Origin: a virus
Lineage: Duplodnaviria; Heunggongvirae; Uroviricota; Caudoviricetes
Reading direction: 5' to 3' (one strand)
DNA length: 35,146 nt
Virus record (IMG/VR): IMGVR_UViG_2909309443_000004
The translations under genes and the position numbers were made by a program. The first letter of the stretch is position 1. Every line of letters starts with the position of its first letter. Below the pieces are notes generated by a model. That model searched no databases. It was not told where the DNA came from and saw only the letters and a list, made by a program, of their open reading frames with translations. Below, in pieces: positions 5,026-29,216 of this stretch.

Positions 5026-5102
5026 TTACCGTTGAGGTAATAATTATGCTTATTTGGTTTGGTGTCAATAGATATGAGTTAAAAAAATTACCCGTAAGGT
5101 AA
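5026..5102 (-). promoter_or_regulatory. leftward early promoter with two operator copies (OL-like)
   Basis: TTACCGTTGAGGTAA at 5026-5040 and TTACCCGTAAGGTAA at 5088-5102 flank a minus-strand -35 TTGACA (complement of 5063-5068). An AT-rich -10 region lies around 5041-5047. Confidence 0.65.
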
Positions 5103-5112
5103 TCTATCTGGC

Positions 5113-5139
5113 AATAAAAAAGCCGCCATGAGGCGGCTT
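5113..5139 (-). terminator. rho-independent terminator of the repressor gene
   Basis: Minus strand reads AAGCCGCC-TCAT-GGCGGCTT followed by TTTTATT, 20 nt after the repressor stop. Confidence 0.75.
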
Positions 5140-5159
5140 ACTTGCTGAAAACTATAGTT

Positions 5160-5744
5160 TTATTGTTTGCTTTTTTCGTTCTGGTTGATGACAAATTCAA
5201 TGTAACTTTCGATCTTTGCCTTCTCTGTTTCAGGTAACAATGCGTAGCGCGAGCGGTCATAGTTGATAGTCGCGGGGTCGTGCGGGTGAATCAGTAATTC
5301 ATATCCGTGACGCCCAAATGCGGATGCAACATTCTCCAGGGTGGAAATGGAAACGCTGACCTCATTGTTTAACAGGCGGCTGATTGTTACCTGGGCGACG
5401 CCGGATGCGCGGTGAAGTTTTCCCTGCGTTGAAAGGTCGCGGCTTTCGCTCATCCAGCGTTCCAGGTTGTGAGCCGCCAGTTGACCAATGTCGCTTGGTC
5501 CGACAGGCTGAAAACCTTCCTGAGAAAGCGAGCGATCGATATCAAGCCAGTTACGGGGTTTATTGGCGGCAGCTTCAATTTTTCGCGCAACCTGGTCGCC
5601 GATAACCTTCTTGCCAAGAGCCCAGCGGTTTACCAGATTTGCCTGAGTTCCAAGTTTTTCAGCCATCCGCGTCTGAACACCATTGAATTCACGGTCGATC
5701 AAGTCGTTGAGATTTTGCCTGCGGACGTCCTGGATACTTTTCAT
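5160..5744 (-). CDS. prophage repressor with two HTH domains and no S24 peptidase domain
   Basis: 194 aa. N-terminal XRE-type HTH (TRMAEKLGTQANLVNRWALGKK) and a second HTH (LHRASGVAQVTISRLLNNEVSVS). No Ala-Gly / Ser..Lys autocleavage module. Divergent from a Cro-like gene across a triple operator. Confidence 0.82.
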   Translation of the reverse strand: MKSIQDVRRQNLNDLIDREFNGVQTRMAEKLGTQANLVNRWALGKKVIGDQVARKIEAAANKPRNWLDIDRSLSQEGFQPVGPSDIGQLAAHNLERWMSESRDLSTQGKLHRASGVAQVTISRLLNNEVSVSISTLENVASAFGRHGYELLIHPHDPATINYDRSRYALLPETEKAKIESYIEFVINQNEKSKQ

Positions 5745-5799
5745 TTTCTGGAAAATCGCCTCATATCTGAATCAGAAGATGATTCAATTTAAAGCAATA

Positions 5800-5866
5800 T
5801 TACCCAACAGGTAAATGCACCTCATGGGTAACTATCCTTGATTTTTGTTACCTTATAGGTGAATAT
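5800..5866. promoter_or_regulatory. OR-like triple operator plus rightward promoter
   Basis: Operators: TTACCCAACAGGTAA (5800-5814), GCACCTCATGGGTAA (5817-5831, imperfect), TTACCTTATAGGTGA (5848-5862, one mismatch). Rightward promoter: TTGATT (5838-5843), 17-nt spacer, GAATAT (5861-5866), overlapping the third operator. Confidence 0.7.
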
Positions 5867-5898
5867 TTATTATCTGAAATAAATATCAGGCAATAGCT

Positions 5899-6129
5899 AT
5901 GAGCGATAACGGACATTTCGATTTCAAAAAGCACTGGCTTGCACTTACTCCGGATGAGCGTGAAGCCTTCGCACAGGAAGCCGGAACGACGAGTCACTAT
6001 ATCCAGACTCACTTAACAGGTAAGCGCAAAATGCCAGGTAAGGTATTGATGGATGGGCTTTTTAAAGCCTGTAAATCAAGACAATGGCTGCGCTCAAAAG
6101 CAGAACTGGCATACTTCTTCTACTCATGA
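5899..6129 (+). CDS. Cro-like / YdaS-type small HTH regulator
   Basis: 76 aa, divergent from the repressor. HTH-like segment EAFAQEAGTTSHYIQTHLTGKRK. Confidence 0.65.
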   Translation: MSDNGHFDFKKHWLALTPDEREAFAQEAGTTSHYIQTHLTGKRKMPGKVLMDGLFKACKSRQWLRSKAELAYFFYS

Positions 6130-6150
6130 TATCCAGCCACAACCCTCTGT

Positions 6151-6174
6151 AGACCGCCATCCGGCGGTCTTTTC
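6151..6174 (+). terminator. rho-independent terminator after the cro-like gene
   Basis: AGACCGCC-ATCC-GGCGGTCT followed by TTTC, 22 nt after the stop codon. Confidence 0.7.
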
Positions 6175-6184
6175 ATATCTATTC

Positions 6185-6199
6185 GTACCTCAAGGGTAA
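6185..6199. promoter_or_regulatory. operator-like site (one mismatch)
   Basis: GTACCTCAAGGGTAA lies directly after the terminator and ahead of the replication genes. No convincing -35/-10 found around it. Confidence 0.4.
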
Positions 6200-6279
6200 T
6201 AAAAAACCAAATATGGTTGATCTTTTTTTTGTGTCAGCACAAAATAACCGTAATCCCAATACTAATAACAGGGCTTACC

Positions 6280-6480
6280 ATGGAAATCATTACACGTATT
6301 GATGCCGCAAAGCGCGGACTTAAACGCTACTACACCGGAAAAACATGTAAGCACGGACATGACAGTGAACGCTGGGTTTACAACGGACACTGTGTTGAGT
6401 GCACCATGGAATCAAACCGTCGTATCAGGGCAGAGATTAAGCAGATCATGATTAATTCCTCCCCACAACATTCAAGCTGA
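6280..6480 (+). CDS. small Cys/His zinc-ribbon-type phage protein (66 aa)
   Basis: ATG at 6280 (MEIITRIDAAKRGLKRYYTGKTCKHGHDSERWVYNGHCVEC). The RYYTGK-x-C-x-HGH...C-x-x-C pattern recurs in phage early regions. The upstream part of the track ORF (6217) is hydrophobic read-through of a T-tract. Confidence 0.6.
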   Translation: MEIITRIDAAKRGLKRYYTGKTCKHGHDSERWVYNGHCVECTMESNRRIRAEIKQIMINSSPQHSS

Positions 6481-6495
6481 TAGCGGAGATTAATC

Positions 6496-7311
6496 ATGAG
6501 CAGACATGCAACAGATTGGGCCTGGGAGACAGATCCAGGTAGCTCGTCATTAAAGCTCATACTGCTCTCGATGGCTGACAGAGCCGATGAATATAACCTC
6601 TGCTACCCCAGCATAGAACGCCTCGTTAAAGACACTTGCCTGAATAAAAAAACCGTGCAGGCCGGACTTATATCGCTCATGAAAATGGGGCTTATTTCAG
6701 ATACCGGGGAGAGAAAGGGAGCGACAAAAAGAGTGCGGGTTTTCTCTCTTAATATAACCAAAAACGGGAACATTAAAGGCAACCGAGAGGGGGGCAATGA
6801 ACCCGAAAACGGTAATGTTACCGAAAACGGGAATATACCCAAAAACGGGATGTTGAATGATCCCAAAAACGGGATGTTGAATGATCCCAAAAACGGGATC
6901 CAGAACCAGTCATATAACCAGTCATTTAACCAAGAGAGGGAGAGCAGGACAAAAAACGGGGATTCTGTGCATCATGACCCCGGCGCAAACAACGCCGTGA
7001 TGAATAACTTTGTTCCTCCTGGTGGGCCAGGGCAATTAGGCAAATTTGTCATGCATGAACAATGGCAGCCATCAGATGACTTTCTTCGGAAAAGCTCATT
7101 GCAGGGGATCTACCTGGACAGTCTGCCAACGGCACAGGAACTTGCAGAGTTCAGAATTTACTGGATGGCTGAGGGTAAGGCATACCATCAGGCACAGTGG
7201 GAGCAGAAGCTGGCAAGGCGGCTGCAGATTAGCAGACAGAAGCAATCAACATTACCTGATAACAACGTTCCGCACTGGAACAGCCCTGAAGCATGGGAGG
7301 ATTTCTTGTGA
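6496..7311 (+). CDS. replication initiator (N-terminal HTH, internal iteron-encoded repeats, DnaT-like C-terminus)
   Basis: 271 aa. N-terminus LKLILLSMADRADEYNLCYPSIERLVKDTCLNKKTVQAGLISL. Central repeats ENGNVTENGNIPKNGMLNDPKNGMLNDPKNG. C-terminus WQPSDDFL..FRIYWMAEGKAYHQAQWEQKLARRLQ. Confidence 0.82.
   Translation: MSRHATDWAWETDPGSSSLKLILLSMADRADEYNLCYPSIERLVKDTCLNKKTVQAGLISLMKMGLISDTGERKGATKRVRVFSLNITKNGNIKGNREGGNEPENGNVTENGNIPKNGMLNDPKNGMLNDPKNGIQNQSYNQSFNQERESRTKNGDSVHHDPGANNAVMNNFVPPGGPGQLGKFVMHEQWQPSDDFLRKSSLQGIYLDSLPTAQELAEFRIYWMAEGKAYHQAQWEQKLARRLQISRQKQSTLPDNNVPHWNSPEAWEDFL
6757..6963 (+). repeat. origin-type iterons inside the initiator gene
   Basis: Seven copies of CC(A/G)AAAACGG(G/T)A at 6757, 6802, 6820, 6838, 6862, 6886 and 6948. 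These include a perfect 24-bp tandem duplication, CCCAAAAACGGGATGTTGAATGAT (6838-6861 and 6862-6885). Confidence 0.7.
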
Positions 7312-8093
7312 ACAACGTTTTTACCGCGATACAAAACCGTGACGGAGAAGCCCTTTCTCGCATGTCAGGTTATGAGCATCAGTACACCAACAATGACAAC
7401 GTAGTGAACATGTCAGCAGAGAGGCTTGTTGATGCCCTTTTCAAACAGTTGAAACAACTGTTTCCGGCGGCAGTGGTAACCAACCTGAAGACGCCAGAGC
7501 AGGAAGTTGCTGCAAAACAGCAGTGGATTGCTGCGTTTGCCGAAGGGGGGATCCGAACCCGTGAACAGGTTTCTGCTGGTATGCGCCACGCCCGCGCCAG
7601 TGAATCTCCGTTCTGGCCGTCGCCAGGGCAATTTATCAAGTGGTGTAAAGACAGCAAGATGGTTCTTGGCGTCACCATTGACGATGTGATGGCGGAGTTT
7701 CACCGGTACAGCAAGGAAAAAAGTTTATATCCTGGTGGTCCCGAAAGATTCCCGTGGCGGCATCCGGTTATGTACTGGGTCGTATGTGATACACGCCGTG
7801 CAATGTATCAGCGCCAGCTTAGCGAGATTGAGGTTGAGAAACACGCGCGCAGGCTGCTCGATGATTGGGCGAAAAAGGTGGCTTCCGGACAGCAGATACC
7901 CGATCCGGTGATCAGCATACAGGCAAAGCCAGAGCCCATGAGTACGCCTCCGGACACAGGGAGAGACGTTTACCATCCACCAGGGCGAAGTTTCGGGTGC
8001 ATGCCTAACGCCGCCACCCTTGGGGGAATAACACCGGCGCAGTGGCTGATGGAGGAATACAGGCGGGGAAAGGCGGCAGGATTTATCAAGTAA
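7308..8093 (+). CDS. lambda-P-like replicative helicase loader
   Basis: GTG at 7308 forms a GTGA overlap with the initiator stop, with GGAGG 6 nt upstream; alternative ATG at 7293. Collinear by eye with lambda P (QQWIAAFAEGGIRTREQVSAGMRHAR..FWPSPGQFIKWCK..SLYPGGPERFPWRHPVMYW). Confidence 0.85.
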   Translation: MNNVFTAIQNRDGEALSRMSGYEHQYTNNDNVVNMSAERLVDALFKQLKQLFPAAVVTNLKTPEQEVAAKQQWIAAFAEGGIRTREQVSAGMRHARASESPFWPSPGQFIKWCKDSKMVLGVTIDDVMAEFHRYSKEKSLYPGGPERFPWRHPVMYWVVCDTRRAMYQRQLSEIEVEKHARRLLDDWAKKVASGQQIPDPVISIQAKPEPMSTPPDTGRDVYHPPGRSFGCMPNAATLGGITPAQWLMEEYRRGKAAGFIK

Positions 8094-8098
8094 TACCA

Positions 8099-8118
8099 GC
8101 GCGATAGCGCATTTTTTT
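8099..8118 (+). terminator. weak hairpin plus T7 tract after the P-like gene
   Basis: GCGC-GATA-GCGC then ATTTTTTT. The short stem keeps confidence low. Confidence 0.35.
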
Positions 8119-8130
8119 ACGTCTATATGA

Positions 8131-8207
8131 TTACCTGGAAGGTAATAAAATGTTCTAATCTCTATTGATTTCATGTCTTATGTGGTTTTTAATTACCTAA
8201 GGGGTAA
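8131..8207 (+). promoter_or_regulatory. promoter flanked by two perfect operators
   Basis: TTACCTGGAAGGTAA (8131-8145) and TTACCTAAGGGGTAA (8193-8207). TTGATT (8165-8170), 17-nt spacer, TTTAAT (8188-8193). The second operator covers the predicted start site and the RBS of the next ORF. Confidence 0.65.
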
Positions 8208-8210
8208 ATC

Positions 8211-8333
8211 ATGAGAAAACAGATACAGGCTCTTGGTCGACTCAAAACAGGCCAGATGAACAAAACAGAATCTGCGTATTGCCAGCACCTTGAGCTGCGT
8301 AAACGTGCAGGGGAAATCGCCTGGTATCGATTC
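8211..8333 (+). pseudogene. 5' fragment of a small phage nuclease-like gene (DUF1064/resolvase-like by eye)
   Basis: MRKQIQALGRLKTGQMNKTESAYCQHLELRKRAGEIAWYRF looks like the N-terminus of a conserved family. After codon F (8331-8333) the frame reads unrelated sequence and stops at 8399. Confidence 0.45.
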
Positions 8334-8523
8334 ACCATCAGTGCCTGCAACACCAGAAGTTCAGGCAGCACCACAGGAGCAGGATGCCGCCGTTGTTGAT
8401 GCCCGCGACGAAGAAACTCGTCGCCGTCGCGCTGCTGCTGGTCGTAGTTCTACGCTGCTTACCGGTTCTCAGGGCGACACATCAACCGCTAATACCAGCG
8501 GTAAAACGCTGCTTGGTCAGTAA
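8334..8523 (+). pseudogene. 3' fragment of a T7 gp7.3-like small virion protein gene
   Basis: A different frame reads ..PEVQAAPQEQDAAVVDARDEETRRRRAAAGRSSTLLTGSQGDTSTANTSGKTLLGQ* and ends 14 nt before the portal start. No credible start codon or RBS of its own. Confidence 0.45.
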
Positions 8524-8537
8524 CCGGAGTCATTGAA

Positions 8538-10217
8538 ATGGCGGAAACAACTAAAGAGCGATTGAACAAACAGTTCGCACAACTTGAAAGCGAGCGTCAG
8601 TCGTTCGAGCCGCACTGGCGCGAGTTGAGTGATTACATCAACCCGCGTGGTTCCCGCTTTCTGACTTCTGAGGTCAACCGTAACGATCGACGCAATACAC
8701 GCATTATTGATTCGACCGGGACTATGGCGGCGCGCACTCTCGCCAGCGGCATGATGTCAGGCATCACAAGCCCCGCGCGTCCGTGGTTTCGCCTGGCTAC
8801 GCCAGATCCTGAAATGATGGATTATGGCCCTGTTAAGTTGTGGCTTGAGGCGGTGCAGAACCGCATGAACGATATGTTCAATAAGTCGAATCTCTATCAG
8901 TCGCTGCCGCAGTTATACGGAAGCCTCGGCACATACAGCACTGGCGCAATGGCGGTGCTGGAGGATGACGAGGACATCATTCGTACAATGCCATTCCCGA
9001 TAGGAAGTTACTACCTGGCTAACTCACCTCGTGGCAGTGTGGACACCTGTTTTCGCAAGTTCTCTATGACTGTTCGTCAGCTTGTTCAGGAGTTCGGGCT
9101 AAATAACGTCAGCGAATCCGTAAAAAGCATGTGGGAAAGCGGCACCTACGAGAAGTGGATTGACGTGATGCATTCGGTTTACCCGAACATTGACCGCGAT
9201 ACATCGAAGCTGGATAGCAAGAACAAGCCATTCAAATCGGTTTATTACGAGGTTGGTGGCGATAACGACAAGTTGTTGCGTGAGTCCGGATTTGATGAGT
9301 TTCCAATTATGGCTCCGCGCTGGGAAGTTAACGGCGAAGATGTTTATGGATCATCATGCCCGGGTATGCTGGCGCTTGGAGCTGTTAAGGCATTGCAGCT
9401 TCTCCAGAAGCGCAAGTCGCAGTTGATTGATAAAGCCACCAATCCGCCGATGGTTGCTCCGACTTCCCTCAAGAATCAGCGTGCCTCCCTTCTTCCTGGC
9501 GACATCACGTATATCGATCAGATTACTGGTCAGGATGGTTTCAGGCCTGCTTATCTGGTTAACCCCAGTACAGCAGATTTGGTGGCAGACATTCAGGACA
9601 CTCGTCAAATCATTAACAGCGCCTACTTTGTCGATCTGTTCATGATGTTGCAGAACATCAATACCCGCTCGATGCCTGTTGAAGCGGTGATCGAAATGAA
9701 AGAAGAAAAACTTCTGATGTTGGGGCCGGTTCTGGAGCGTCTGAACGACGAATGTCTTAACCCTCTCATTGACCGCGCTTTCTCGATGATGGTGCGTAAA
9801 AACATGCTGCCGCCACCGCCTGACGCGATGGAAGGTATGCCCCTGAAGGTCGAATACATTTCCGTCATGGCTCAGGCGCAGAAGTCTATCGGCCTGTCCA
9901 GTCTGGCGTCCACGGTTAACTTCATTGGTCAACTTGCGCAAGCGAAACCAGAAGCTCTCGACAAACTCAACGTTGATCAGGCGATCGATGCATTCGCTGA
10001 TATGTCCGGAGTGTCTCCAACCGTCATTGTTCCGCAGGAACAGGTTGAGCAGGCTCGCCAGCAACGGGCACAGCAACAACAGCAGCAACAAATGATGGCG
10101 ATGGGGATGGCGGCGGCACAGGGTGCCAAGACGCTAAGCGAAGCTAAAACTTCGGATCCGAGTGTTTTGTCAGCTATGGCGAATGCAGTTAGTGGTCAGG
10201 GTGGGCAATCACAATGA
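8538..10217 (+). CDS. portal protein (T7-type head-to-tail connector family)
   Basis: 559 aa. N-terminus RLNKQFAQLESERQSFEPHWRELSDYINPRGSRF..RNTRIIDSTGTMAARTLASGMMSGITSPARPWFRL is typical of podovirus portals. Gln-rich C-terminus. Confidence 0.9.
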   Translation: MAETTKERLNKQFAQLESERQSFEPHWRELSDYINPRGSRFLTSEVNRNDRRNTRIIDSTGTMAARTLASGMMSGITSPARPWFRLATPDPEMMDYGPVKLWLEAVQNRMNDMFNKSNLYQSLPQLYGSLGTYSTGAMAVLEDDEDIIRTMPFPIGSYYLANSPRGSVDTCFRKFSMTVRQLVQEFGLNNVSESVKSMWESGTYEKWIDVMHSVYPNIDRDTSKLDSKNKPFKSVYYEVGGDNDKLLRESGFDEFPIMAPRWEVNGEDVYGSSCPGMLALGAVKALQLLQKRKSQLIDKATNPPMVAPTSLKNQRASLLPGDITYIDQITGQDGFRPAYLVNPSTADLVADIQDTRQIINSAYFVDLFMMLQNINTRSMPVEAVIEMKEEKLLMLGPVLERLNDECLNPLIDRAFSMMVRKNMLPPPPDAMEGMPLKVEYISVMAQAQKSIGLSSLASTVNFIGQLAQAKPEALDKLNVDQAIDAFADMSGVSPTVIVPQEQVEQARQQRAQQQQQQQMMAMGMAAAQGAKTLSEAKTSDPSVLSAMANAVSGQGGQSQ

Positions 10218-10510
10218 CAGATTACGAAGATGATCAACTGAAAGAAGAAAACGCCCGTAAGCAACGTGACATGGCACAGCGTGAAATTGATGACATTCGC
10301 TTTGTCATGAGCAGTGAACAGGGGCGTCGCGTTGTCTGGTCGGTGCTGGAGAAAGGCCGTGTGTTTTCCGCTATCTCACCGATGGACGCTATGGCAATGG
10401 CATTTAATGAGGGGCAACGCAATCTGGCGCTGGAACTGTTTCAGCGCGTTATGGCGCATTGCCCTGAACAGTATTTGAAGATGGCCAAAGAGGCCAGTGA
10501 ACAGGAGTGA
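10214..10510 (+). CDS. small conserved head-module protein (Bbp19-like by eye)
   Basis: 98 aa. ATGA overlap with the portal stop, positioned between portal and scaffold. Confidence 0.55.
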   Translation: MTDYEDDQLKEENARKQRDMAQREIDDIRFVMSSEQGRRVVWSVLEKGRVFSAISPMDAMAMAFNEGQRNLALELFQRVMAHCPEQYLKMAKEASEQE

Positions 10511-10512
10511 TC

Positions 10513-11208
10513 ATGAATTTATTTGAGCGTTTGCTGTATCGCCGTCTTTGCAATGAGCAACCAGTCGATGGTGGAGCAGCTCCGGCTGCGTCAGAACCGT
10601 CAGCGCCTGCAGGTGATAACCCTGCTCCAGTTGGTGATCCATCACAATCGGAAGGTGATAAGCCACAACCTGTTGCTGATGGCGATAAACCTGCTGATGA
10701 CAAAAAGCCTGAAAGCGATAAGCAGGGTGAAAAAAAGGACGGCGATAAACCGGATGGTGCGCCGGAGAAGTACGAGTTTCAGGCTGCCGAAGGCGTAGAG
10801 CTGGATACAGAAGCGTTAAAGGAATTCGAGCCGGTGGCGCGAGAACTAAACCTGACCAACGAGCAAGCGCAAAAGCTGGTTGATGCTTATCCGAAGATTC
10901 TGGCAGGTGTTCAGCAGCGCCAGGCAGAAGCCTGGCAGAAAACAACCGAGCAGTGGGCTGCGGATGTAAAAGCTGACAAAGAAATCGGTGGCGACAAGTT
11001 GATTTCTAACCTTAGCTCCGCACAGCGTGCGCTTGACCAGTTCGGGACACCTGAACTCAAAGAATATCTGAACACCACCGGGCTGGGTAATCACCCTGAT
11101 CTGGTCAAAACGTTCGTGAAAATCGGAAAGGCGATGTCTGAAGATGGCATGGTCACCGGTGGTAATGAAGGCCAGCGTAGTGCGGCCGAAGTGCTCTATG
11201 GCAAATAA
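10513..11208 (+). CDS. scaffolding protein
   Basis: ATG at 10513 with AGGAG 5 nt upstream. Acidic/Pro-rich GDKP-repeat N-terminus then a helical C-terminus. Sits directly before the capsid gene. Confidence 0.72.
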   Translation: MNLFERLLYRRLCNEQPVDGGAAPAASEPSAPAGDNPAPVGDPSQSEGDKPQPVADGDKPADDKKPESDKQGEKKDGDKPDGAPEKYEFQAAEGVELDTEALKEFEPVARELNLTNEQAQKLVDAYPKILAGVQQRQAEAWQKTTEQWAADVKADKEIGGDKLISNLSSAQRALDQFGTPELKEYLNTTGLGNHPDLVKTFVKIGKAMSEDGMVTGGNEGQRSAAEVLYGK

Positions 11209-11222
11209 GAGAGGAGATAACA

Positions 11223-12000
11223 ATGGCTGTTAAAGGCTTAACTGCGCTAACGCTGGCTGACTGGGGTAAGCGCGTCGATCCAAATGGGAAAGTCGATAAG
11301 ATTATCGAGCTTCTCAATCAAACTAACCCAATTCTTCAGGATATGCCTTTTGTTGAAGGAAACCTTCCTACCGGACACCGAACCACCATTCGTTCTGGTT
11401 TACCTTCTGCTACCTGGCGTTTGCTGAACTATGGCGTACAGCCAAGCAAATCAACCACAGTGCAGGTCACCGATTCCATTGGCATGCTGGAAACCTATGC
11501 TGAAGTCGATAAGTCTCTGGCTGATCTGAACGGTAATACTGCCGAATTCCGTCTGTCTGAAGACCGAGCATTTATTGAAGCGATGAATCAGGCGATGGCG
11601 CAGACACTGTTTTACGGTGATTCCAGCGTTAACCCTCAGCAGTTTATGGGACTGTCCTCCCGCTATTCCAGCCTGTCTGCGGGTAATGCTCAGAACATCA
11701 TTGATGCTGGTGGCACGGGTACAGATAACACTTCAATCTGGTTAGTGGTGTGGGGCGAAAACACCGTGCATGGCATCTTCCCGAAAGGACAGAAGGCTGG
11801 CATTCAGATGGAAGATAAAGGCCAGGTGACACTGGAAGATGCTAATGGCGGCAAGTACGAAGGTTATCGTACCCATTATAAGTGGGACAACGGGCTGACA
11901 TTACGTGACTGGCGCTATGTAGTTCGTATCGCAAACATCGATGTCAGCAATCTTTCAGAACCTTCCTCTGCCGCAAATATTGCGAAGTTGATGGTTAAAG
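11223..12000 (+). pseudogene. major capsid protein gene, 5' part (interrupted by IS)
   Basis: Capsid-like ORF reads to ..ANIAKLMVK and then runs into the IS inverted repeat. Joining 12000 to 14540 restores one 328-aa frame. Confidence 0.85.
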
Positions 12001-12085
12001 GTAAGCGTAAACTGACCGCCGTATGTAGCCATCAGACGAGAATTGGTAACTTAGACGCCCATCTGATATAGACGGACATCTAAGT

Positions 12086-12511
12086 ATGGAATTACAGGAC
12101 TGGCGAAAAGAACCTCGTAAAAACTATTCGAATGAATTCAAACTTCGTATGGTGGAACTGGCATCACAACCTGGAGCTTGTGTTGCACAGATTGCACGTG
12201 AAAATGGCGTCAATGATAATGTTATTTTCAAATGGCTCAGGCTCTGGCAGAACGAAGGGCGTGTTTCGCGGCGTCTTCCGGTAACGACCTCTTCTGACAC
12301 TGGCGTTGAATTATTACCTGTAGAAATAACGCCGGATGAGCAGAAAGAACCTGTGGCGGCCATTGCGCCGTCTTTATCCACTTCCACTCAGACCAGAGTC
12401 AGTGCCAGTTCCTGCAAGGTGGAATTCCGTCACGGTAACATGACGCTGGAAAATCCATCGCCAGAGCTGCTCACAGTGTTGATCCGTGAACTGACCGGGA
12501 GGGGAAGATGA
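12086..12511 (+). CDS. tnpA: IS66-family accessory protein TnpA (HTH)
   Basis: 141 aa, RKNYSNEFKLRMVELASQPGACVAQIARENGVNDNVIFKWLR. ATGA overlap with tnpB. Confidence 0.88.
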   Translation: MELQDWRKEPRKNYSNEFKLRMVELASQPGACVAQIARENGVNDNVIFKWLRLWQNEGRVSRRLPVTTSSDTGVELLPVEITPDEQKEPVAAIAPSLSTSTQTRVSASSCKVEFRHGNMTLENPSPELLTVLIRELTGRGR

Positions 12512-12858
12512 TCTCACTCCCATCAGGTACCCGTATCTGGCTCGTTGCCGGCGTTACCGATATGCGTAAATCCTTCAACGGACTGGGAGAACAGGTACAA
12601 CATGTGCTGAATGATAATCCCTTCTCCGGTCACCTGTTTATCTTCCGTGGCCGACGGGGTGACACCGTCAAAATTCTTTGGGCTGATGCTGATGGTCTGT
12701 GCCTGTTCACCAAACGCCTGGAGGAAGGCCAGTTTATCTGGCCTGCGGTACGTGACGGCAAGGTATCCATTACCCGCTCGCAACTGGCAATGCTCCTCGA
12801 TAAGCTGGACTGGCGTCAGCCAAAAACATCCAGCCGTAACTCACTGACAATGTTGTAA
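12508..12858 (+). CDS. tnpB: IS66-family Orf2 protein TnpB
   Basis: 116 aa, RIWLVAGVTDMRKSFNGLGEQVQHVL..LFIFRGRRGDTVKILWADADGLCLFTKRLE, typical of IS66 Orf2. Confidence 0.9.
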   Translation: MISLPSGTRIWLVAGVTDMRKSFNGLGEQVQHVLNDNPFSGHLFIFRGRRGDTVKILWADADGLCLFTKRLEEGQFIWPAVRDGKVSITRSQLAMLLDKLDWRQPKTSSRNSLTML

Positions 12859-12888
12859 AAAACTCCTGACCGCATTATAAAAACGGTC

Positions 12889-14502
12889 ATGAGTCAGAAA
12901 TACCTCATTCGCATCGCAGAGCTGGAAAGGTTGCTCTCTGAGCAGGCTGAAGCCCTCCGTCAGAAAGACCAGCAACTGAGTCTGGTTGAAGAGACGGAAG
13001 CCTTCCTGCGCTCTGCACTGACACGTGCCGAAGAAAAGATCGAAGAAGATGAACGGGAAATAGAACATCTGCGGGCTCAGATAGAAAAACTGCGCCGGAT
13101 GCTGTTCGGTACCCGTTCTGAAAAACTGCGTCGTGAAGTTGAACTGGCTGAGGCTCTGCTGAAACAACGTGAACAGGACAGCGATCGTTACAGTGGGCGG
13201 GAAGACGATCCTCAGGTTCCCCGCCAGTTGCGACAGTCGCGCCATCGTCGTCCGTTACCGGCACACCTTCCCCGTGAAATACACCGCCTGGAGCCAGAAG
13301 AAAGCTGTTGCCCGGAGTGTGGCGGTGAGCTGGATTATCTGGGGGAAGTCAGCGCTGAACAGCTGGAACTGGTGAGCAGTGCCCTGAAAGTGATCCGCAC
13401 AGAACGGGTAAAAAAAGCCTGTACAAAATGTGACTGTATTGTTGAAGCACCGGCGCCGTCCCGCCCGATAGAGCGTGGTATCGCGGGCCCCGGATTACTT
13501 GCCCGCGTGTTAACGGGAAAATACTGCGAACATCTGCCACTGTATCGTCAGAGTGAAATCTTTGCCCGCCAGGGTGTCGAACTGAGCCGGGCCTTACTCT
13601 CCAACTGGGTTGACGCGTGCTGCCAGTTAATGACACCGGTGAATGATGCCCTGTACCGTTATGTAATGAACACCCGCAAGATTCACACTGATGACACACC
13701 GGTAAAGGTACTGGCACCGGGTCAGAAAAAGGCGAAAACAGGGCGTATCTGGACGTATGTCCGGGATGATCGCAATGTGGGTTCGTCATCTCCTCCAGCG
13801 GTCTGGTTCGCGTACTCGCCGAACCGGCAGGGGAAACACCCGGAGCAACACCTCCGCCCCTTCCGGGGTATCCTGCAGGCGGATGCGTTCACAGGTTACG
13901 ACAGGTTGTTCAGTGCAGAACGTGAAGGTGGTGCACTGACAGAAGTTGCGTGCTGGGCCCATGCCCGGCGAAAAATCCACGATGTATACATCAGCAGCAA
14001 AAGTGCGACGGCAGAAGAAGCACTGAAGCGAATCAGTGAACTGTACGCCATCGAGGATGAAATACGGGGATTACCGGAGTCAGAGCGTCTTGCCGTCAGG
14101 CAGCAGCGAAGCAAAGTGTTACTGACGTCGCTGCATGAATGGATGGTGGAGAAGAATGGTACGCTGTCGAAAAAATCCAGACTGGGCGAAGCGTTCAGCT
14201 ATGTACTGAATCAGTGGGATGCCCTCTGTTATTACAGTGATGACGGTCTGGCGGAGGCGGATAATAATGCTGCGGAAAGAGCGCTTCGTGCAGTCTGTCT
14301 CGGAAAGAAAAACTTTATGTTCTTTGGCAGCGATCACGGCGGCGAGCGTGGAGCACTGTTGTACGGGCTGATCGGCACCTGCCGTCTGAACGGTATCGAT
14401 CCGGAAGCGTATCTGCGCCATATCCTGAGCGTACTGCCGGAATGGCCTTCCAACCGAGTTGATGAACTCCTGCCATGGAACGTAGTACTCACCAATAAAT
14501 AA
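12889..14502 (+). CDS. tnpC: IS66-family DDE transposase TnpC
   Basis: 537 aa with an N-terminal coiled coil/leucine zipper, a CPECGG..C-x-x-C zinc motif, and a core with HTDDTPVKVL and DNNAAERALR. Confidence 0.92.
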   Translation: MSQKYLIRIAELERLLSEQAEALRQKDQQLSLVEETEAFLRSALTRAEEKIEEDEREIEHLRAQIEKLRRMLFGTRSEKLRREVELAEALLKQREQDSDRYSGREDDPQVPRQLRQSRHRRPLPAHLPREIHRLEPEESCCPECGGELDYLGEVSAEQLELVSSALKVIRTERVKKACTKCDCIVEAPAPSRPIERGIAGPGLLARVLTGKYCEHLPLYRQSEIFARQGVELSRALLSNWVDACCQLMTPVNDALYRYVMNTRKIHTDDTPVKVLAPGQKKAKTGRIWTYVRDDRNVGSSSPPAVWFAYSPNRQGKHPEQHLRPFRGILQADAFTGYDRLFSAEREGGALTEVACWAHARRKIHDVYISSKSATAEEALKRISELYAIEDEIRGLPESERLAVRQQRSKVLLTSLHEWMVEKNGTLSKKSRLGEAFSYVLNQWDALCYYSDDGLAEADNNAAERALRAVCLGKKNFMFFGSDHGGERGALLYGLIGTCRLNGIDPEAYLRHILSVLPEWPSNRVDELLPWNVVLTNK

Positions 14503-14539: not shown

Positions 14540-14748
14540 CACTGCATCGCATTCCAAACCGTGGCATGGGTCGCCCGGTGTTCTACATGAACCGCACTGT
14601 AGGCCAGGCTCTTGATCTGCAATCTCTGGAGAAAACATCTCTGGCTATCAGCGTAAAAGAGACTGAAGGCGAGTGGTGGACTTCATTCCGTGGTGTACCA
14701 ATCCGTGAAACTGATGCGCTTCTGGAAACAGAAGCCCGCGTGGTGTAA
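14540..14748 (+). pseudogene. major capsid protein gene, 3' part
   Basis: Continues the 11223 frame after removal of the IS plus one repeat copy (..MVK|ALHRIPNRGMGRPVFYMNRTV..EARVV*). The track ORF 14566-14748 is its ATG-delimited tail. Confidence 0.82.
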
Positions 14749-14764
14749 CGCCTGTTATTAACCT

Positions 14765-15237: not shown

Positions 15238-15247
15238 GGTGATATCG

Positions 15248-23045: not shown

Positions 23046-23050
23046 ATTAA

Positions 23051-25525: not shown

Positions 25526-25534
25526 GGAAGTGTT

Positions 25535-25708
25535 GTGTTTTTAATTATTTTGAGTGTGATAATTTCTGGTGGATTGTTATTTATTGACCGCTACAAATAT
25601 TTTCTTAACCCTCAGACTCAAGCTATTTGCTGGTTCATCTTTGTTGTGCAGGGAGTAGTTCTTGTTGCAAGCCTTATTGAGGGGAGGCCTCTTATTTTTA
25701 CTGGGTAA
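25535..25708 (+). CDS. small membrane protein (57 aa, two predicted TM helices)
   Basis: Hand-translated from GTG 25535, with AAGGAAG 4 nt upstream: VFLIILSVIISGGLLFIDRYKYFLNPQTQAICWFIFVVQGVVLVASLIEGRPLIFTG. Below the ORF-track cutoff. Confidence 0.35.
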   Translation: MFLIILSVIISGGLLFIDRYKYFLNPQTQAICWFIFVVQGVVLVASLIEGRPLIFTG

Positions 25709-25721
25709 ATTAGGTGACTAC

Positions 25722-26018
25722 ATGCAAGCTATAGGATTCATTGTTTATATCGTCGTTGGTCTTTTTCAGTTGGCAGCAATTATGGCTGGGCTTGAATCAT
25801 GGTGGGGATTGCACTGGATAATTGCAGCCCCCATTGCTTTCATCGTGAGCTATATTCCATTTGTTGGAGCGATTGTTGGTATGGTTGGCGCTGTGGATGT
25901 ATGGCGGTGGGAGTGGTGGCAGGCTGGCCTTCTCTTCTTTGGTGGGATCATCTTTGCTATTGTCTGCGGTGGAATGTCATCATTTTTCGAATGGCTAGCA
26001 TTCAGAAAAGGAACGTGA
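25722..26018 (+). CDS. small polytopic membrane protein (98 aa)
   Basis: ATG at 25722 after GGTGA; alternative TTG at 25662 after GGGAG. Three to four hydrophobic helices and a Trp-rich loop (VDVWRWEWWQ). Confidence 0.6.
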   Translation: MQAIGFIVYIVVGLFQLAAIMAGLESWWGLHWIIAAPIAFIVSYIPFVGAIVGMVGAVDVWRWEWWQAGLLFFGGIIFAIVCGGMSSFFEWLAFRKGT

Positions 26019-26026
26019 CATGTCAC

Positions 26027-26051
26027 AGGCCGCTTTCGCGGCCTTGTTTTT
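26027..26051 (+). terminator. rho-independent terminator
   Basis: AGGCCGC-TTTC-GCGGCCT followed by TGTTTTT. Shared 3' region with the convergent minus-strand gene. Confidence 0.7.
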
Positions 26052-26211
26052 AACGAATGCCACCGCCTCCCGGGCGGGAATCCGCAGAACGCCCACCGCA
26101 GCGGGAGCCGTCAGCGGCAGTATCGCTGTCGTGCTGACAACGACCGGCAAAGGCCTGAGTTGAAGCTACCAGAGACAACAAAACGAACAGTGCAGCAAAT
26201 GCTTTTTTCAT
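26050..26211 (-). CDS. small secreted Cys-containing peptide (53 aa)
   Basis: ATG at 26211: MKKAFAALFVLLSLVASTQAFA|GRCQHDSDTAADGSRCGGRSADSRPGGGGIR. Classic signal peptide with an AFA-G cleavage site. The mature part has two Cys and a Gly-rich tail. Confidence 0.55.
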   Translation of the reverse strand: MKKAFAALFVLLSLVASTQAFAGRCQHDSDTAADGSRCGGRSADSRPGGGGIR

Positions 26212-26224
26212 TGTGAAATTTCCA

Positions 26225-26252
26225 TCTATAAGCCACCTCAATGTGGCGTCAA
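26225..26252 (-). promoter_or_regulatory. candidate sigma70 promoter of the secreted-peptide gene
   Basis: Minus strand: TTGACG (complement of 26247-26252), 16-nt spacer, TATAGA (complement of 26225-26230). Confidence 0.45.
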
Positions 26253-26283
26253 TGAGTGTAGCACTGACTTTTGTTTCGTCCAC

Positions 26284-26303
26284 AAAAAATCCCGCAGCGC
26301 GGG
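26284..26303 (-). terminator. rho-independent terminator of the AT-rich two-gene cassette
   Basis: Minus strand directly after the TAA: CCCGC-GCT-GCGGG followed by ATTTTTT. Confidence 0.7.
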
Positions 26304-26304
26304 C

Positions 26305-26748
26305 TTATTCTTCTTCTTCATCATTAAAAAGCGGATTGTTGTTTCCATCTGATGAAAGGAAAGGTATGTGTTCTCTTGAAAATCCAACAATGACAATTTC
26401 ATTATCATTTTTTGCATAATGAATGCATTCATTAGAATGCATTCCGCCAGGGTTGAAATTTAAGTTAATGGTATAATTCTTAAATGTGTTTGGATACCAT
26501 GTTGGCCCACAATGATAATGCCAATAATTCTCTTGCTCATAATTGTCTGAGCCTGGAATTTTATCATGGTTATCATCAACCCACGAGGGCTTGTTTTTTC
26601 CAACAAGCGCCCTTCCATTGGCAACATCCTCTAAAAACCTTTGTATGATTTTTATTTCATCATCAGTAAGGAAAGGTCCGTCTACAGCGAAAGGGGTGTT
26701 GCTTTCCCCATGTAGAAAACTATTAGATATTCTAATGTTAAACTTCAA
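26305..26748 (-). CDS. 147-aa protein of unknown function; weak by-eye resemblance to YafO-family toxins
   Basis: TTG start at 26748 with AGGAG 6-7 nt upstream. Visibly AT-rich. Segments YWHYHCGP..(25 aa)..HSNECIHYAKNDNEIVIVGFSREH recall the YafO pattern H-x-H-L..S-D-x-x-L-V-Y..H. Acidic tail NDEEEE. Confidence 0.55.
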   Translation of the reverse strand: MKFNIRISNSFLHGESNTPFAVDGPFLTDDEIKIIQRFLEDVANGRALVGKNKPSWVDDNHDKIPGSDNYEQENYWHYHCGPTWYPNTFKNYTINLNFNPGGMHSNECIHYAKNDNEIVIVGFSREHIPFLSSDGNNNPLFNDEEEE

Positions 26749-26768
26749 GGAAAACTCCTGATGTGCTT

Positions 26769-26936
26769 CTATTTGGAGCGAAATGCCGCCTTGAAGTCGC
26801 TAAAAGATGTTCCTGTCTGGTAAACCATATCCTTGTCGCGCTCTTTGCTTGCGCGACCAAGCATAACTTTTCCAATGACATCCCAGCATTGCTTGGCTTG
26901 TTCATTGTGCTGAGTACGATTTTTCAACGCTGTCAT
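26769..26936 (-). CDS. 55-aa protein, candidate partner/antitoxin of the 147-aa ORF
   Basis: Hand-translated: MTALKNRTQHNEQAKQCWDVIGKVMLGRASKERDKDMVYQTGTSFSDFKAAFRSK. Strong RBS AAAGGAGG 6 nt before the ATG at 26936. The stop is 20 nt before the TTG start of the next gene. Confidence 0.5.
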   Translation of the reverse strand: MTALKNRTQHNEQAKQCWDVIGKVMLGRASKERDKDMVYQTGTSFSDFKAAFRSK

Positions 26937-26948
26937 ATCGCGCCTCCT

Positions 26949-26992
26949 TTACCTTTAAGGTAATATTACGCGAATCTACATCACATCGCCAA
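26949..26992 (-). promoter_or_regulatory. operator plus candidate promoter of the AT-rich cassette
   Basis: Perfect TTACCTTTAAGGTAA (26949-26963) abuts a minus-strand -10 TAATAT (complement of 26963-26968). TTGGCG lies 18 nt upstream (complement of 26987-26992). Confidence 0.5.
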
Positions 26993-27005
26993 TGATTATT
27001 TTAAA

Positions 27006-27021
27006 GGCACATCCCTGTGCC
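27006..27021 (-). terminator. hairpin after the Bro-N gene
   Basis: Minus strand GGCACA-GGGA-TGTGCC followed by TTTAAAAT. The interrupted T-tract makes it weak. Confidence 0.4.
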
Positions 27022-27029
27022 GCCGCCCG

Positions 27030-27758
27030 TCAGAAGAACCCTGCCTTGTCGTTGATGTACTCCGCGTGGGTCTGGATATCACGCAGGCATTTGCTCACAC
27101 CGACGATGTAGCAGAACATGGTGGTCAGTTCCGCCGCCGCGCCCGATACGTCATGCCCGTCTTCCTGTAACTGGTTCAGCAAATTCATCAGCAGTGAGTT
27201 CTCCGTCAGGCCGAGAACACCAGACGGTGAATGAATCAGGCTACGGTAGCCGGGCTTCAGTGGGGCGCTGTAGGTTTTGTTCTCTATCTTCATTGCCTGC
27301 ATCACTGCTGATGCTGTGGCGTTGGCTACCTGGTCGGCAACCATCTTTATGCGTTCTTCTTGCGGGAGCGAGTTTTTAATGTAACTTCCGGTGCGGCGGA
27401 TCTGAGGAAGAACCTCACCTGTAACCCATTTACGAAAGCGGTATGGGATAGTGCCTGGTGTCACCGCATCGCGGCAGCGGAGGATCAGTGTGTAGAGGCC
27501 TGACTCGTTGATAATATTGGTTTCGCCTTGACGGCCTAAGTTAAATTTAGCCCTTTCATCATCATCAAGAGATTTTATTGACATAGTGGGGTTTGTCAGT
27601 TGAAGAGCTTTAATAACGTCTTTGGCAACAAACCAAGGATTAATCGCAAATCCAACTCTCCTCAGAGTTATAACGCTCAAACGCTTTACACATACTTTGT
27701 GTTGGTGCTGGAGGGCGTTCAAGGGCAGCCATGACTTGCTCCCAAACATCCTCTTCAA
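27030..27758 (-). CDS. Bro-N domain protein with an Ant-like C-terminal domain (start uncertain)
   Basis: Bro-N core NPWFVAKDVIKAL..ESGLYTLILRCRD..RFRKWVTGEVLPQIRRTGSY. The C-terminal 63 aa match the 28868-29125 protein at 28/63 identities (hand alignment). The track start is TTG 27758 and the first ATG is 27749, both inside the upstream RHH gene in another frame. The next in-frame ATG (27584) would cut the Bro-N domain. Confidence 0.7.
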   Translation of the reverse strand: MKRMFGSKSWLPLNALQHQHKVCVKRLSVITLRRVGFAINPWFVAKDVIKALQLTNPTMSIKSLDDDERAKFNLGRQGETNIINESGLYTLILRCRDAVTPGTIPYRFRKWVTGEVLPQIRRTGSYIKNSLPQEERIKMVADQVANATASAVMQAMKIENKTYSAPLKPGYRSLIHSPSGVLGLTENSLLMNLLNQLQEDGHDVSGAAAELTTMFCYIVGVSKCLRDIQTHAEYINDKAGFF

Positions 27759-27924
27759 CGATCAAGCGGCGATGTTCATTAATAACTGTTTCAGCTCTAA
27801 AAGTCGTAGACTCCATTACAAATTGAGATACGGACACTTTAGAAATAACAGCAGCTTCTTCGATACGGCGCTTCGCAGCTTCGGGCAGACGAAACTCGAA
27901 CCGCTCCTTTCTTACTGCGTTCAT
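27640..27924 (-). CDS. DUF1778/TacA-like ribbon-helix-helix protein (antitoxin-type) with no GNAT toxin partner
   Basis: 94 aa from ATG 27924 (AGGAG 5 nt upstream). RFEFRLPEAAKRRIEEAAVISKVSVSQFVMESTTFRAETVINEHRRLIVEEDVWEQVMAALERPPAPT is collinear by eye with TacA/DUF1778 antitoxins over the full length. Confidence 0.65.
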   Translation of the reverse strand: MNAVRKERFEFRLPEAAKRRIEEAAVISKVSVSQFVMESTTFRAETVINEHRRLIVEEDVWEQVMAALERPPAPTQSMCKAFERYNSEESWICD

Positions 27925-27988
27925 AACAACTCCTGAGCTAATGCTCACAGTGGTTTATACCACATAACGATATGCACGGTACGGGAAT

Positions 27989-28003
27989 TTACCGTACAGG
28001 TAA
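27989..28003. promoter_or_regulatory. operator copy upstream of the RHH/Bro-N genes
   Basis: Perfect TTACCGTACAGGTAA, 65 nt upstream of the RHH start. Confidence 0.6.
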
Positions 28004-28081
28004 TGATAAGCGCGAAGAAATATTAAAATCAACCTTATTTGGTTGATTGCGTTTAACGCTTGATCACCTGAAAGCAAGATA

Positions 28082-28096
28082 TTACCTTTAAGGTAA
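28082..28096. promoter_or_regulatory. operator copy upstream of the TM/zinc-ribbon gene
   Basis: Perfect TTACCTTTAAGGTAA, identical to the 26949 copy, 21 nt upstream of the ATG at 28117. Confidence 0.6.
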
Positions 28097-28116
28097 TGTT
28101 ATTGTGAGGAAAAGCA

Positions 28117-28845
28117 ATGGAAGTTTTCTGGATAGTTGTTGGTGTGGTTGCGGTGATTATTTACGTTATCAACCAGAACAAGACTAAGATCTCTGATCGT
28201 ACGGTCGTTAATCATAACAAAACGATAAAGACCGAAGATGGGGAGATAACGATTAATCGTACACAGGTGATAGAACACACCTCTACTCAGTTTCAAAAAA
28301 CTGGAGGTAATGCGCCTAATATTTCCGCACCTCCTGCTTATGATAGTGCGGTAATCCAGACATATTATAAACAGCAGGAGTTAGCAAAAGAGAGGCAACT
28401 GATTCAGCCAAAGCCGTTTACAACTGAGATTCCACCTGGAGTGTCAACGCGTCCGGCATATCATGGAAGATTCCCTGGTGATGACATATCGTCTCAGTCA
28501 TCTAAAAAAGCACCTCAGGCAATATCAGAGCCAGCAAGAATACCTTCTGTATCGCCGCAAAAAGAAGAATCAGCTAACAGAGTTTCAAGTGGTAGCAAGC
28601 AGTGCTTGCGATGCAGAATAAACCTTCCATATGAAAAATTCAGGAAATCGTCAAAAAATCCAGATGGATTGACTAAATGGTGTGCAAGGTGTCTCGATGG
28701 CCCAAAGAATACACGCCATATGAAGTGGTGCCCAATTTGTAATGTCCGCAGAAAACGAACCAGCTTTTACCCTAATAATCAAAATGCGGACGGCTTAATG
28801 GCATGGTGCAAAACGTGCTGGGATGAGCACAAAGCGAAACGATAG
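28117..28845 (+). CDS. membrane-anchored protein with two tandem Cys4 zinc-ribbon repeats
   Basis: 242 aa. N-terminal TM helix (VFWIVVGVVAVIIYVI) and a Pro/Ser/Gln-rich linker. C-terminal repeats CLRCRINLPYEKFRKSSKNPDGLTKWCARC and CPICNVRRKRTSFYPNNQNADGLMAWCKTC (C-x2-C..F..DGL..WC-x2-C). Confidence 0.75.
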   Translation: MEVFWIVVGVVAVIIYVINQNKTKISDRTVVNHNKTIKTEDGEITINRTQVIEHTSTQFQKTGGNAPNISAPPAYDSAVIQTYYKQQELAKERQLIQPKPFTTEIPPGVSTRPAYHGRFPGDDISSQSSKKAPQAISEPARIPSVSPQKEESANRVSSGSKQCLRCRINLPYEKFRKSSKNPDGLTKWCARCLDGPKNTRHMKWCPICNVRRKRTSFYPNNQNADGLMAWCKTCWDEHKAKR

Positions 28846-28861
28846 GCCGCTCTTGCGGCCT
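28844..28861 (+). terminator. hairpin terminator between convergent genes
   Basis: AGGCCGC-TCTT-GCGGCCT followed by TTAAATTT. Overlaps the stop codon of the 28117 gene. Confidence 0.5.
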
Positions 28862-28867
28862 TTAAAT

Positions 28868-29125
28868 TTACCGGGTTTGTTTTCGTAATTGTTCGGCACA
28901 ATAGTCGAGATGTGTTTGCAGATCCCGCATAGACATCTGTGAGCTGGTGACGTAGTTAATCAGTGCAGTCAGTTCGGCAAGTGGGCCATCGACATTAAAT
29001 CCATCCTTATCGAGATCCCGGAGTAATTTCATCAAGTGCGATCCCTCCACCAGTGACCTGACGCCTCCCGGCGTGTGAATCCTTTCGGTAAATCCGTCTT
29101 CCAGTGGATAGTGATACCGCTGCAT
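28868..29125 (-). CDS. ant: small antirepressor-like protein (85 aa) behind a LexA box
   Basis: ATG at 29125 with GGAG 8 nt upstream (the track start at 29143 is a TTG). Paralogous to the C-terminus of the Bro-N protein. The function call rests on the SOS box, the non-cleavable repressor and precedent in related phages. Confidence 0.6.
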   Translation of the reverse strand: MQRYHYPLEDGFTERIHTPGGVRSLVEGSHLMKLLRDLDKDGFNVDGPLAELTALINYVTSSQMSMRDLQTHLDYCAEQLRKQTR

Positions 29126-29144
29126 CTTATCTTCTCCATGCAAT

Positions 29145-29164
29145 AACTGTATATTTATACAGTA
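29145..29164. promoter_or_regulatory. LexA (SOS) box
   Basis: AACTGTATATTTATACAGTA matches the E. coli consensus TACTGTATATATATACAGTA at 18/20, with an intact CTG-N10-CAG. Lies 20-40 nt upstream of the ant start. Confidence 0.8.
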
Positions 29165-29201
29165 TCAAATAATTTGTTTGCTATCCAGCACGTTTTGCAA
29201 A

Positions 29202-29216
29202 TTACCCGAAAGGTAA
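29202..29216. promoter_or_regulatory. operator copy in the ant/tailspike divergent region
   Basis: Perfect TTACCCGAAAGGTAA. Confidence 0.6.

Follow-up and report, generated by a model that had tools for sequence, protein, structure and literature searches.

The phages epsilon15 and SPC32H carry the closest described counterparts of the system considered here. The SPC32H repressor, Rep, is reported to bind palindromes as a tetramer in which each DNA-binding pair is drawn from different dimers; the antirepressor, Ant, breaks this tetramer (PMC9638917). In phage ZX5, overexpression of Rep lowered the holin and endolysin transcripts by more than 99.9% (PMC9782041). The GenBank record of epsilon15 (AY150271.2) carries seven features labeled "protein_bind, repressor, lysogeny," all of them copies of one palindrome. 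Here, we analyze this palindrome, ATTACC-N5-GGTAAT (core TTACC-N5-GGTAA), in a 35,146-nucleotide (nt) stretch of viral DNA, IMG/VR record IMGVR_UViG_2909309443_000004. The whole stretch, referred to as the window, is 97 to 98% identical to Escherichia phage phiV10 and its relatives (genus Uetakevirus, epsilon15 group). From its sequence and placement, we consider it very likely that the motif serves the prophage's own Rep as operator and that it stands at the promoters of almost every transcription unit.

Results

A pattern search of the window returned nine exact matches to the core, starting at 5026, 5088, 5800, 8131, 8193, 26949, 27989, 28082, and 29202, and thereby recovered all nine positions listed in a preliminary description of this DNA. 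The uniform expectation of 0.03 occurrences given there is also correct (35146/4^10 = 0.03), and 100 dinucleotide-preserving shuffles produced 0 exact matches, versus 9 in the window. A mismatch-tolerant scan added two sites with one core mismatch (5848 and 6185) and one with two (5817). We built a gene map by hand from the list of open reading frames (ORFs) and the phiV10 annotation, which leaves 5.6% of the window non-coding. All nine exact sites (P ∼6e-12) and both one-mismatch sites lie in this fraction, as expected from the earlier claim that the motif is intergenic. Matches with two mismatches behave as background, with 20 of 22 in coding DNA, and the shuffles give 10.35 expected matches at two or fewer mismatches. 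A weight matrix derived from 67 sites in eight other genomes (consensus AATTACCTTAAAGGTAATT) scored eleven window sites at 12.8 to 25.4, while the best coding match reached 3.8 and the site at 5817 reached 4.4. The window therefore holds eleven solid sites. Two of the three degenerate copies originally proposed (5848 and 6185) are among them, and the third, 5817, is doubtful, with a background matrix score and only its position in its favor.

The motif had also been presented as a 17-bp palindrome marking every regulatory gap. The core is indeed present at all nine exact sites, but the full 17-bp palindrome is perfect at only four of them (5088, 8131, 28082, and 29202), the other five ending in G/T...A/C. 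Two gaps in the phage DNA, one at 2747-2795 and one at 31922-32059 between the tailspike and lysis genes, hold no copy, so "every gap" was too broad a statement. The gaps beyond 33882 consist of attR and host DNA.

The repressor gene, rep (5160..5744, minus strand), encodes a 194-residue protein with two helix-turn-helix domains that matches SPC32H Rep (PDB 5D50_A, E value of 3.5e-42) and shares 99.5% identity with its counterparts in phiV10 and ZX5. A Pfam search of this protein found helix-turn-helix families only and no Peptidase_S24 self-cleavage domain. Divergent from rep lies a cro-like gene (5899..6129, plus strand; phrog_35 transcriptional repressor, 8.7e-13), the orthologue of phiV10p41. 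Three motif copies sit between these two genes, and two more are found at the leftward promoter, PL, which adjoins rep.

We counted, blind to the motif, all hyphenated 5+5 palindromes in each genome or locus. TTACC-N5-GGTAA was the commonest in nine out of nine, with 6 to 11 copies: 8 to 11 in the window, phiV10, epsilon15, SPC32H, Enterobacter phage Tyrion, and Klebsiella phage BUCT711, and 6 to 7 in three further prophage loci (from Serratia, E. coli, and a sequencing-run assembly) whose Reps are 52 to 59% identical to that of the window. The epsilon15 record places its sites ahead of terS and of the portal operon, downstream of the replication genes, and in both the gp19/tailspike gap and the PL region. 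The last three positions are matched in the window by the PL sites, the post-replication pair, and the site in the ant/tailspike gap, whereas the terS and portal-operon positions are absent because the DNA there has been deleted.

Judged from sequence, the motif is almost certainly best explained as the operator of the 194-residue Rep, with its copies as putative binding sites. We make this assignment because of the enrichment, the clustering of sites at the left and right operators (OL and OR) around rep, the homology of Rep, and the epsilon15 annotation. The preliminary description had arrived at the same repressor, and its reference to a nearly identical epsilon15 operator was accurate, since the seven annotated sites carry this sequence.

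The Rep segment NLVNRW..G.K.IG...AR.IE is unchanged in five of five aligned Reps, and the Reps of several genomes that share the palindrome are only 43 to 59% identical to their window counterpart. Relatives with altered recognition helices (NLVSRW and NLISRW; Reps 52 to 59% identical) all keep TTACC-N5-GGTAA. The operator half-site likewise stays the same where Rep identity falls as low as 52%, also beside a Serratia Rep in which extra residues follow the recognition helix (loci L090, L092, and L093 and P0057-P0082). Any immunity difference among these phages may lie in the pairing of Rep with Ant rather than in DNA specificity.

At PL (TTGACA-17-AATTAT, 5068-5040, minus strand), the OL-proximal operator (5025..5041) abuts the -10 element and covers the start site. 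The OL-distal operator (5087..5103), a perfect 17-bp palindrome, lies 62 bp from the proximal one and 18 nt upstream of the -35 element. The same arrangement is found after the replication genes, where a promoter (TTGATT-17-TTTAAT, 8165-8193, plus strand) is flanked by a proximal operator at 8192-8208 and, 62 bp away, a perfect distal palindrome at 8130..8146, again 18 nt past the -35 element. The spacer of the operator at 8192-8208 also holds the Shine-Dalgarno sequence of the ORF starting at 8211. Operator pairs 62 bp apart recur in phiV10, epsilon15, SPC32H, Tyrion, and the prophage loci L092 and L093, and BUCT711 has a pair at 63 bp. This distance, six helical turns, would fit a single Rep tetramer clamping the promoter.

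The register itself is shared by four promoters of the window, at PL, 8165-8193, 26992-26963, and 28032-28003, in which the last two to three bases of the -10 element are the first bases of the operator. These promoters score 8 to 10 out of 12, and a score of at least 8 occurs at 0.5% of random positions (background P ≤0.005). The preliminary description had placed motif copies at the promoter at 8165-8193 and at the -10 element at 26963-26968, and the promoters at 8165-8193 and 26963-26992 do abut an operator, in the same register as PL.

Within OR, OR-a (5799..5815) has the exact core, and OR-c (5847..5863), with one mismatch, overlaps the -35 element and spacer of the rightward promoter (TTGTTA-17-TATTAT, 5845-5873, plus strand). 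Between them lies the weak site, OR-b (5816..5832), with its two core mismatches and matrix score of 4.4; the orthologous position is an exact site in both epsilon15 and SPC32H. The other one-mismatch site (6184..6200) directly follows the terminator 3' of the cro-like gene, a position conserved in phiV10 (33112) and Tyrion (35365).

Two of the same-register promoters serve accessory cassettes. The first (TTGGCG-18-TAATAT, 26992-26963, minus strand; score of 8, background P of 0.005) has its operator at 26948-26964 over the start site and precedes AT-rich cargo genes (26050..26936, minus strand) assigned to phrog_8607 (26769-26936), phrog_5954 (26305-26748), and phrog_3117 (26050-26283), none of which has a Pfam or PADLOC match. 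The second (TTGATT-18-TATCAT, 28032-28003, minus strand; score of 9, background P of 0.0006) has its operator at 27988-28004, also over the start site, and precedes a TacA-like ribbon-helix-helix (RHH) gene (27640-27948, minus strand; Pfam TacA1, 2.8e-19) followed at its 3' side by a gene encoding a Bro-N/Ant-domain fusion (27030-27758, minus strand; Pfam Bro-N, 6.7e-18). The RHH gene is solitary, without a TacT toxin, and stands directly upstream of the Bro-N antirepressor gene; in the relatives examined, such as ZX5, an Ash-like small gene takes its place.

The C terminus of the Bro-N protein matches phrog_450, the small-Ant family, and its last 78 residues are 41% identical to the small Ant of the window. 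The protein is 85% identical to the ORF4 antirepressor of ZX5, whose overexpression lowered the prophage titer ∼1,000-fold (PMC9782041). By sequence similarity, the Bro-N protein is a second Ant paralogue, placed behind a predicted Rep operator that is not accompanied by a LexA box. We considered LexA control of the Bro-N/RHH operon and rejected it, as a scan of the window for LexA boxes found none near the operon.

A further perfect palindrome (28081..28097) lies 20 nt upstream of a gene for a membrane-anchored zinc-ribbon protein (28117..28845, plus strand; phrog_6762) and 93 bp from the 27989 site. We found no convincing core promoter at this site (best plus-strand score of 5). It may be a distal partner of the 27989 site, nine helical turns away. 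The operators at 26949-26963 and 28082-28096 share an identical 15-mer, TTACCTTTAAGGTAA, in direct orientation and 1133 bp apart. The RHH/Bro-N-Ant operon lies between these two copies and would be excised if they recombined with each other. In the relatives ZX5, TL-2011b, phiv142-3, HEMP4, and Tyrion, differing cassettes are found in this region, each preceded by a motif copy.

The gene adjoining the tailspike gene, called ant in the preliminary description, deserves the name. It encodes an 85-residue protein (28868..29125, minus strand) that matches SPC32H Ant over 83 residues (PDB 5D50_E, E value of 4.8e-46), and a LexA box, CTGTATATTTATACAG (29147..29162), lies 22 nt upstream of its ATG and overlaps the -10 element of the inferred promoter P_ant (TGGATA-17-TACTGT). 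CTGTATATTTATACAG is the only AT-rich, consensus-like exact LexA match in the window, the other exact match being CTGTGGGTCGTAACAG at 14763. The box is conserved in eight genomes and has one mismatch in the ninth, BUCT711. LexA reportedly controls ant in SPC32H, as described by Kim and Ryu in 2013. Those defining features of the SPC32H-type switch that can be checked in sequence are all present, namely a small Ant homologue, a LexA box at the ant promoter, and a repressor without a self-cleavage domain.

Between the divergent P_ant and the late tailspike promoter lies a perfect palindrome (29201..29217). Its distance to the LexA box is 55 bp in nine of the nine genomes compared. By the inferred start sites, it is centered near -57 relative to P_ant and near -70 relative to the tailspike promoter, and it overlaps neither core promoter.

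The late promoter in question carries a sequence block (CATATGTGGTT ... TAGAAT, 29244..29272, plus strand) ahead of the tailspike gene (29321-31921). In every relative, the portal operon, the tailspike gene, and the lysis genes each follow a block of the form CATATnTGGTT, 5 to 8 nt, TAnnAT (examples are at 3308 and 20921 in relative L001 and at 2988 and 19940 in relative L002). In relatives, an operator lies 28 to 40 nt further upstream of each of the three. The CATATnTGGTT block may be the target of a late activator. In the window, the tailspike copy of this form (29246-29272) alone retains its operator, the portal block having been deleted. The lysis-gene block (32003-32026) is slightly degenerate (CCGTAAATGGTT), and there is no operator upstream of the lysis genes, though relatives have one; the DNA upstream of this block has been replaced in the window.

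We then examined the region between ant and the tail genes in 80 IMG/VR relatives (L010-L089) fetched via the Ant protein, 50 of which span it. The region is hypervariable, with 45 distinct versions of 194 to 5187 nt, and these versions, 122.7 kb in total, contain 86 exact operators. At least eight unrelated cassettes are found downstream of one promoter patch, and the window's promoter patch, unrelated to the first, is joined to three of the same cassettes, giving a four-gamete pattern across the operator. The operator spacer and right half-site, of which there are five variants, travel with the cargo. For pairs with the same upstream and unrelated downstream sequence, similarity stops within the operator or no more than 2 nt past its right edge in 64 of 64 cases. 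Among the cargo products are YafO-like toxin-domain proteins, membrane proteins with DUF4760 or DUF2335, and several unknowns. Known defense functions were considered for these proteins and rejected, as none matched the PADLOC defense models.

A stricter, unbiased survey gave a more modest picture. Replacement junctions within 10 nt of an operator center made up 25 of 198 (13%); the corresponding figures are 1.3% for positions drawn at random and 8.3% when the draw is limited to intergenic DNA, an enrichment over other intergenic DNA of 1.5-fold. In 41 variable regions, the raw ends of BLAST high-scoring segment pairs were not enriched at operators over other intergenic positions (6.3% versus 8.4%). 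We therefore keep as a minority hypothesis, put forward tentatively because the enrichment over intergenic DNA is only modest, that the Rep operator is also the place where cargo is exchanged in this slot. Unrelated cassettes, each with its own spacer and right half-site, would then circulate among these phages and be swapped by short-homology recombination within the conserved left half-site and -10 element, possibly via the phage's own RecET, and new cargo would automatically come under repressor control.

The prophage itself is defective and cannot package DNA. About 7.2 kb, including both terminase genes and late-early genes, has been deleted, with a junction near 8332 (∼8211-8523) at which the start of a DUF1064 gene is fused with the end of a small gene, the one preceding the portal gene. 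The terS and portal-operon operators were removed with this segment. Recombination between operator copies was considered as the cause of the deletion and rejected, since the deletion joins two coding sequences. An insertion sequence of the IS66 family (12086-14502), with genes for TnpA-like (12086-12511), TnpB (12508-12858), and TnpC (12889-14502) proteins, interrupts the major capsid gene, whose two parts lie at 11223-12071 and 14566-14748.

The left end of the window is the start codon of the integrase gene, int, and the right end is host DNA, which begins beyond the attR core attgagtgggaatgatt (33971-33987). ZX5 is reported to have the identical attP/attB core, located at the 3' end of guaA. 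In four relatives, a conserved one-mismatch site, TTACC-N5-GGTAT, lies ∼57 nt upstream of int (at 26870 in L001, 26882 in L002, 26960 in L003, and 28568 in L004), which suggests that Rep may also touch int or attP. The site is not visible here because the window begins at the int ATG.

Discussion

The sequence features described above can be brought together in a model in which Rep, of the epsilon15/SPC32H type, would be a tetramer that is not self-cleaving and is inactivated by a small, LexA-controlled Ant. At the promoter-proximal sites (PL, 8165, 26949, and 27989), bound Rep would cover the start site and block RNA polymerase, and at PL and the 8165 promoter one tetramer, with two DNA-binding units, could grip both promoter flanks. 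The sites that lie only upstream, namely 29202, probably 28082, and those at the late promoters of relatives, overlap no core promoter and could serve looping. In the lysogen, the phrog_8607/5954 cassette and the RHH/Bro-N-Ant operon would be off. DNA damage would remove LexA, Ant would be made, the Rep tetramers would fall apart, and the cassettes would be turned on. The Bro-N-Ant paralogue would then reinforce the switch by positive feedback because its gene itself lies behind a Rep operator. Binding, repression, looping, and feedback are all inferred here from sequence.

Several observations weigh against this model or against part of it. The assignment of the motif to Rep rests on database annotation and co-occurrence, and among the relatives examined for repressor/operator co-variation, we found no relative with a different operator. 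The preliminary description had all island genes silenced in the lysogen and released on induction. The geometry predicts this for the 26949 and 27989 sites, but 28082 and 29202 lack a repressive geometry, the former having no convincing core promoter and the latter lying ∼57 and 70 bp upstream of the inferred starts. Finally, cargo such as YafO-like toxins and membrane proteins would usually be expected to be expressed in the lysogen, which fits awkwardly with full repression.

The main rival explanation is that some or all of the dispersed copies are used mainly by another protein, either the Cro-like protein during lytic growth or a late activator, and that the upstream late sites switch genes on. 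In relatives, the operators of the three late promoters lie near -70 or farther upstream, as is usual for activator sites but not for steric repression, and the perfect 17-bp palindromes are the upstream sites, while those at start sites are imperfect. Against this, the same sequence clusters at OL and OR around rep, as repressor operators do, and the start-site class has a clear repressive geometry. Cro-type proteins normally share operators with the repressor, so use by such a protein would be more an addition than an alternative to Rep. We consider it unlikely that another protein is the main user.

The mosaicism of the cargo slot could also mean that the cassette sites are passive passengers, short conserved stretches at the boundaries of swapped modules whose regulatory role may have been lost. 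This would agree with the 64 pairs, every one of which has its mosaic junction within the operator or at its border, and with the four-gamete pattern, which shows exchange across the operator. A passive linker, however, need not keep both half-sites perfect while its 5-bp spacer varies (five spacer/right-half variants are found), nor need it hold a fixed register with good -35 and -10 elements, and the unbiased survey found only the 1.5-fold enrichment over other intergenic DNA. We regard this explanation as improbable, more so than use by another protein. A compositional accident of AT-rich promoter and ribosome-binding sequence, to which the likeness of the right half-site and its flank (GGTAATAT) to a -10 hexamer and the Shine-Dalgarno-like runs in two spacers (8193 and 26949) might point, is effectively refuted by the empty shuffles, by the top rank of the palindrome in nine independent genomes or loci, and by orthologous positions that retain the half-sites while flanks and spacers change.

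With Rep retained as the probable user of the sites, the window adds one more temperate phage whose single repressor would directly gate nearly every transcription unit, a pattern present in the epsilon15 annotation and, in principle, familiar from P1. If this is true, the accessory genes of this phage group are induction-phase genes and not morons expressed in the lysogen, which changes how the function of these toxin-like and membrane proteins should be sought. A regulatory site used as a cargo crossover, if confirmed, would give the old "linker" model of phage mosaicism a concrete example, and a Rep-controlled second antirepressor suggests a simple positive-feedback latch on a structurally characterized switch.

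In P1, the C1 repressor has 22 dispersed operators and directly controls many scattered units, among them genes with accessory and antirepressor roles (PMC8546580). C1 is unrelated to Rep, and its operator, ATTGCTCTAATAAATTT, is an asymmetric 17-mer, whereas the window motif is symmetric, so the likeness is one of logic only. A looser likeness is to the stoperators of cluster A mycobacteriophages such as L5 and Bxb1. Stoperators are numerous and found genome-wide in short intergenic gaps, are asymmetric and bound by a protein unrelated to Rep, and are oriented with transcription; they lie mostly outside promoters, stop elongation, and co-vary with the repressor between subclusters (PMC6550527). 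The window sites, in contrast, are symmetric and promoter associated, several are held in a fixed -35/-10 register, and they are invariant across the relatives found. They are members of neither the P1 C1 operator class nor the stoperator class.

A partial likeness to a third system is seen in the RHH/Bro-N pair, in which a small RHH gene directly precedes an antirepressor gene. In the immI region of P22, the RHH proteins Arc and Mnt control ant. The RHH protein of the window is TacA-like and not of the Arc/Mnt type, and the relative TL-2011b has an annotated pair of an Arc-like repressor and Ant.

The SPC32H switch (PDB 5D50 and 5D4Z) is closer. Its Rep and Ant are homologous to those of the window, in both phages a LexA box lies upstream of ant with a Rep operator 55 bp away, and the 62-bp operator pairs are in keeping with a Rep tetramer that has two DNA-binding units. 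The window differs in having a second, longer Ant paralogue, the Bro-N fusion, behind a predicted Rep operator without a LexA box.

The most complete match is epsilon15, in which a homologous repressor (gp38, 43% identity) is paired with the same ATTACC-N5-GGTAAT motif in the same dispersed layout, with sites up to ∼20 kb from the repressor gene and with the PL, post-replication, and ant(gp19)/tailspike sites in common. Its record lists seven sites, and an OR cluster is present in the sequence but omitted from the annotation. The window has lost the terS and portal-operon sites by deletion, and epsilon15 is without the Bro-N/RHH, zinc-ribbon, and AT-rich cassettes, so the cassette sites have no counterpart there. 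The long reach of the motif, singled out as unusual in the preliminary description, is not peculiar to this prophage, as the sites of epsilon15, phiV10, SPC32H, Tyrion, and BUCT711 are already dispersed up to ∼20 kb from rep, lying before terS, the portal operon, and the lysis genes, in the ant/tailspike gap, and after the replication genes. Dispersed operator reach is an ordinary trait of the genus, already annotated in epsilon15. To it the present comparison makes modest additions: a cargo slot with at least eight cassettes behind operator-bearing promoters and with mosaic junctions inside the operator, the fixed 55-bp spacing between LexA box and operator, and a second Ant paralogue at a predicted Rep operator.

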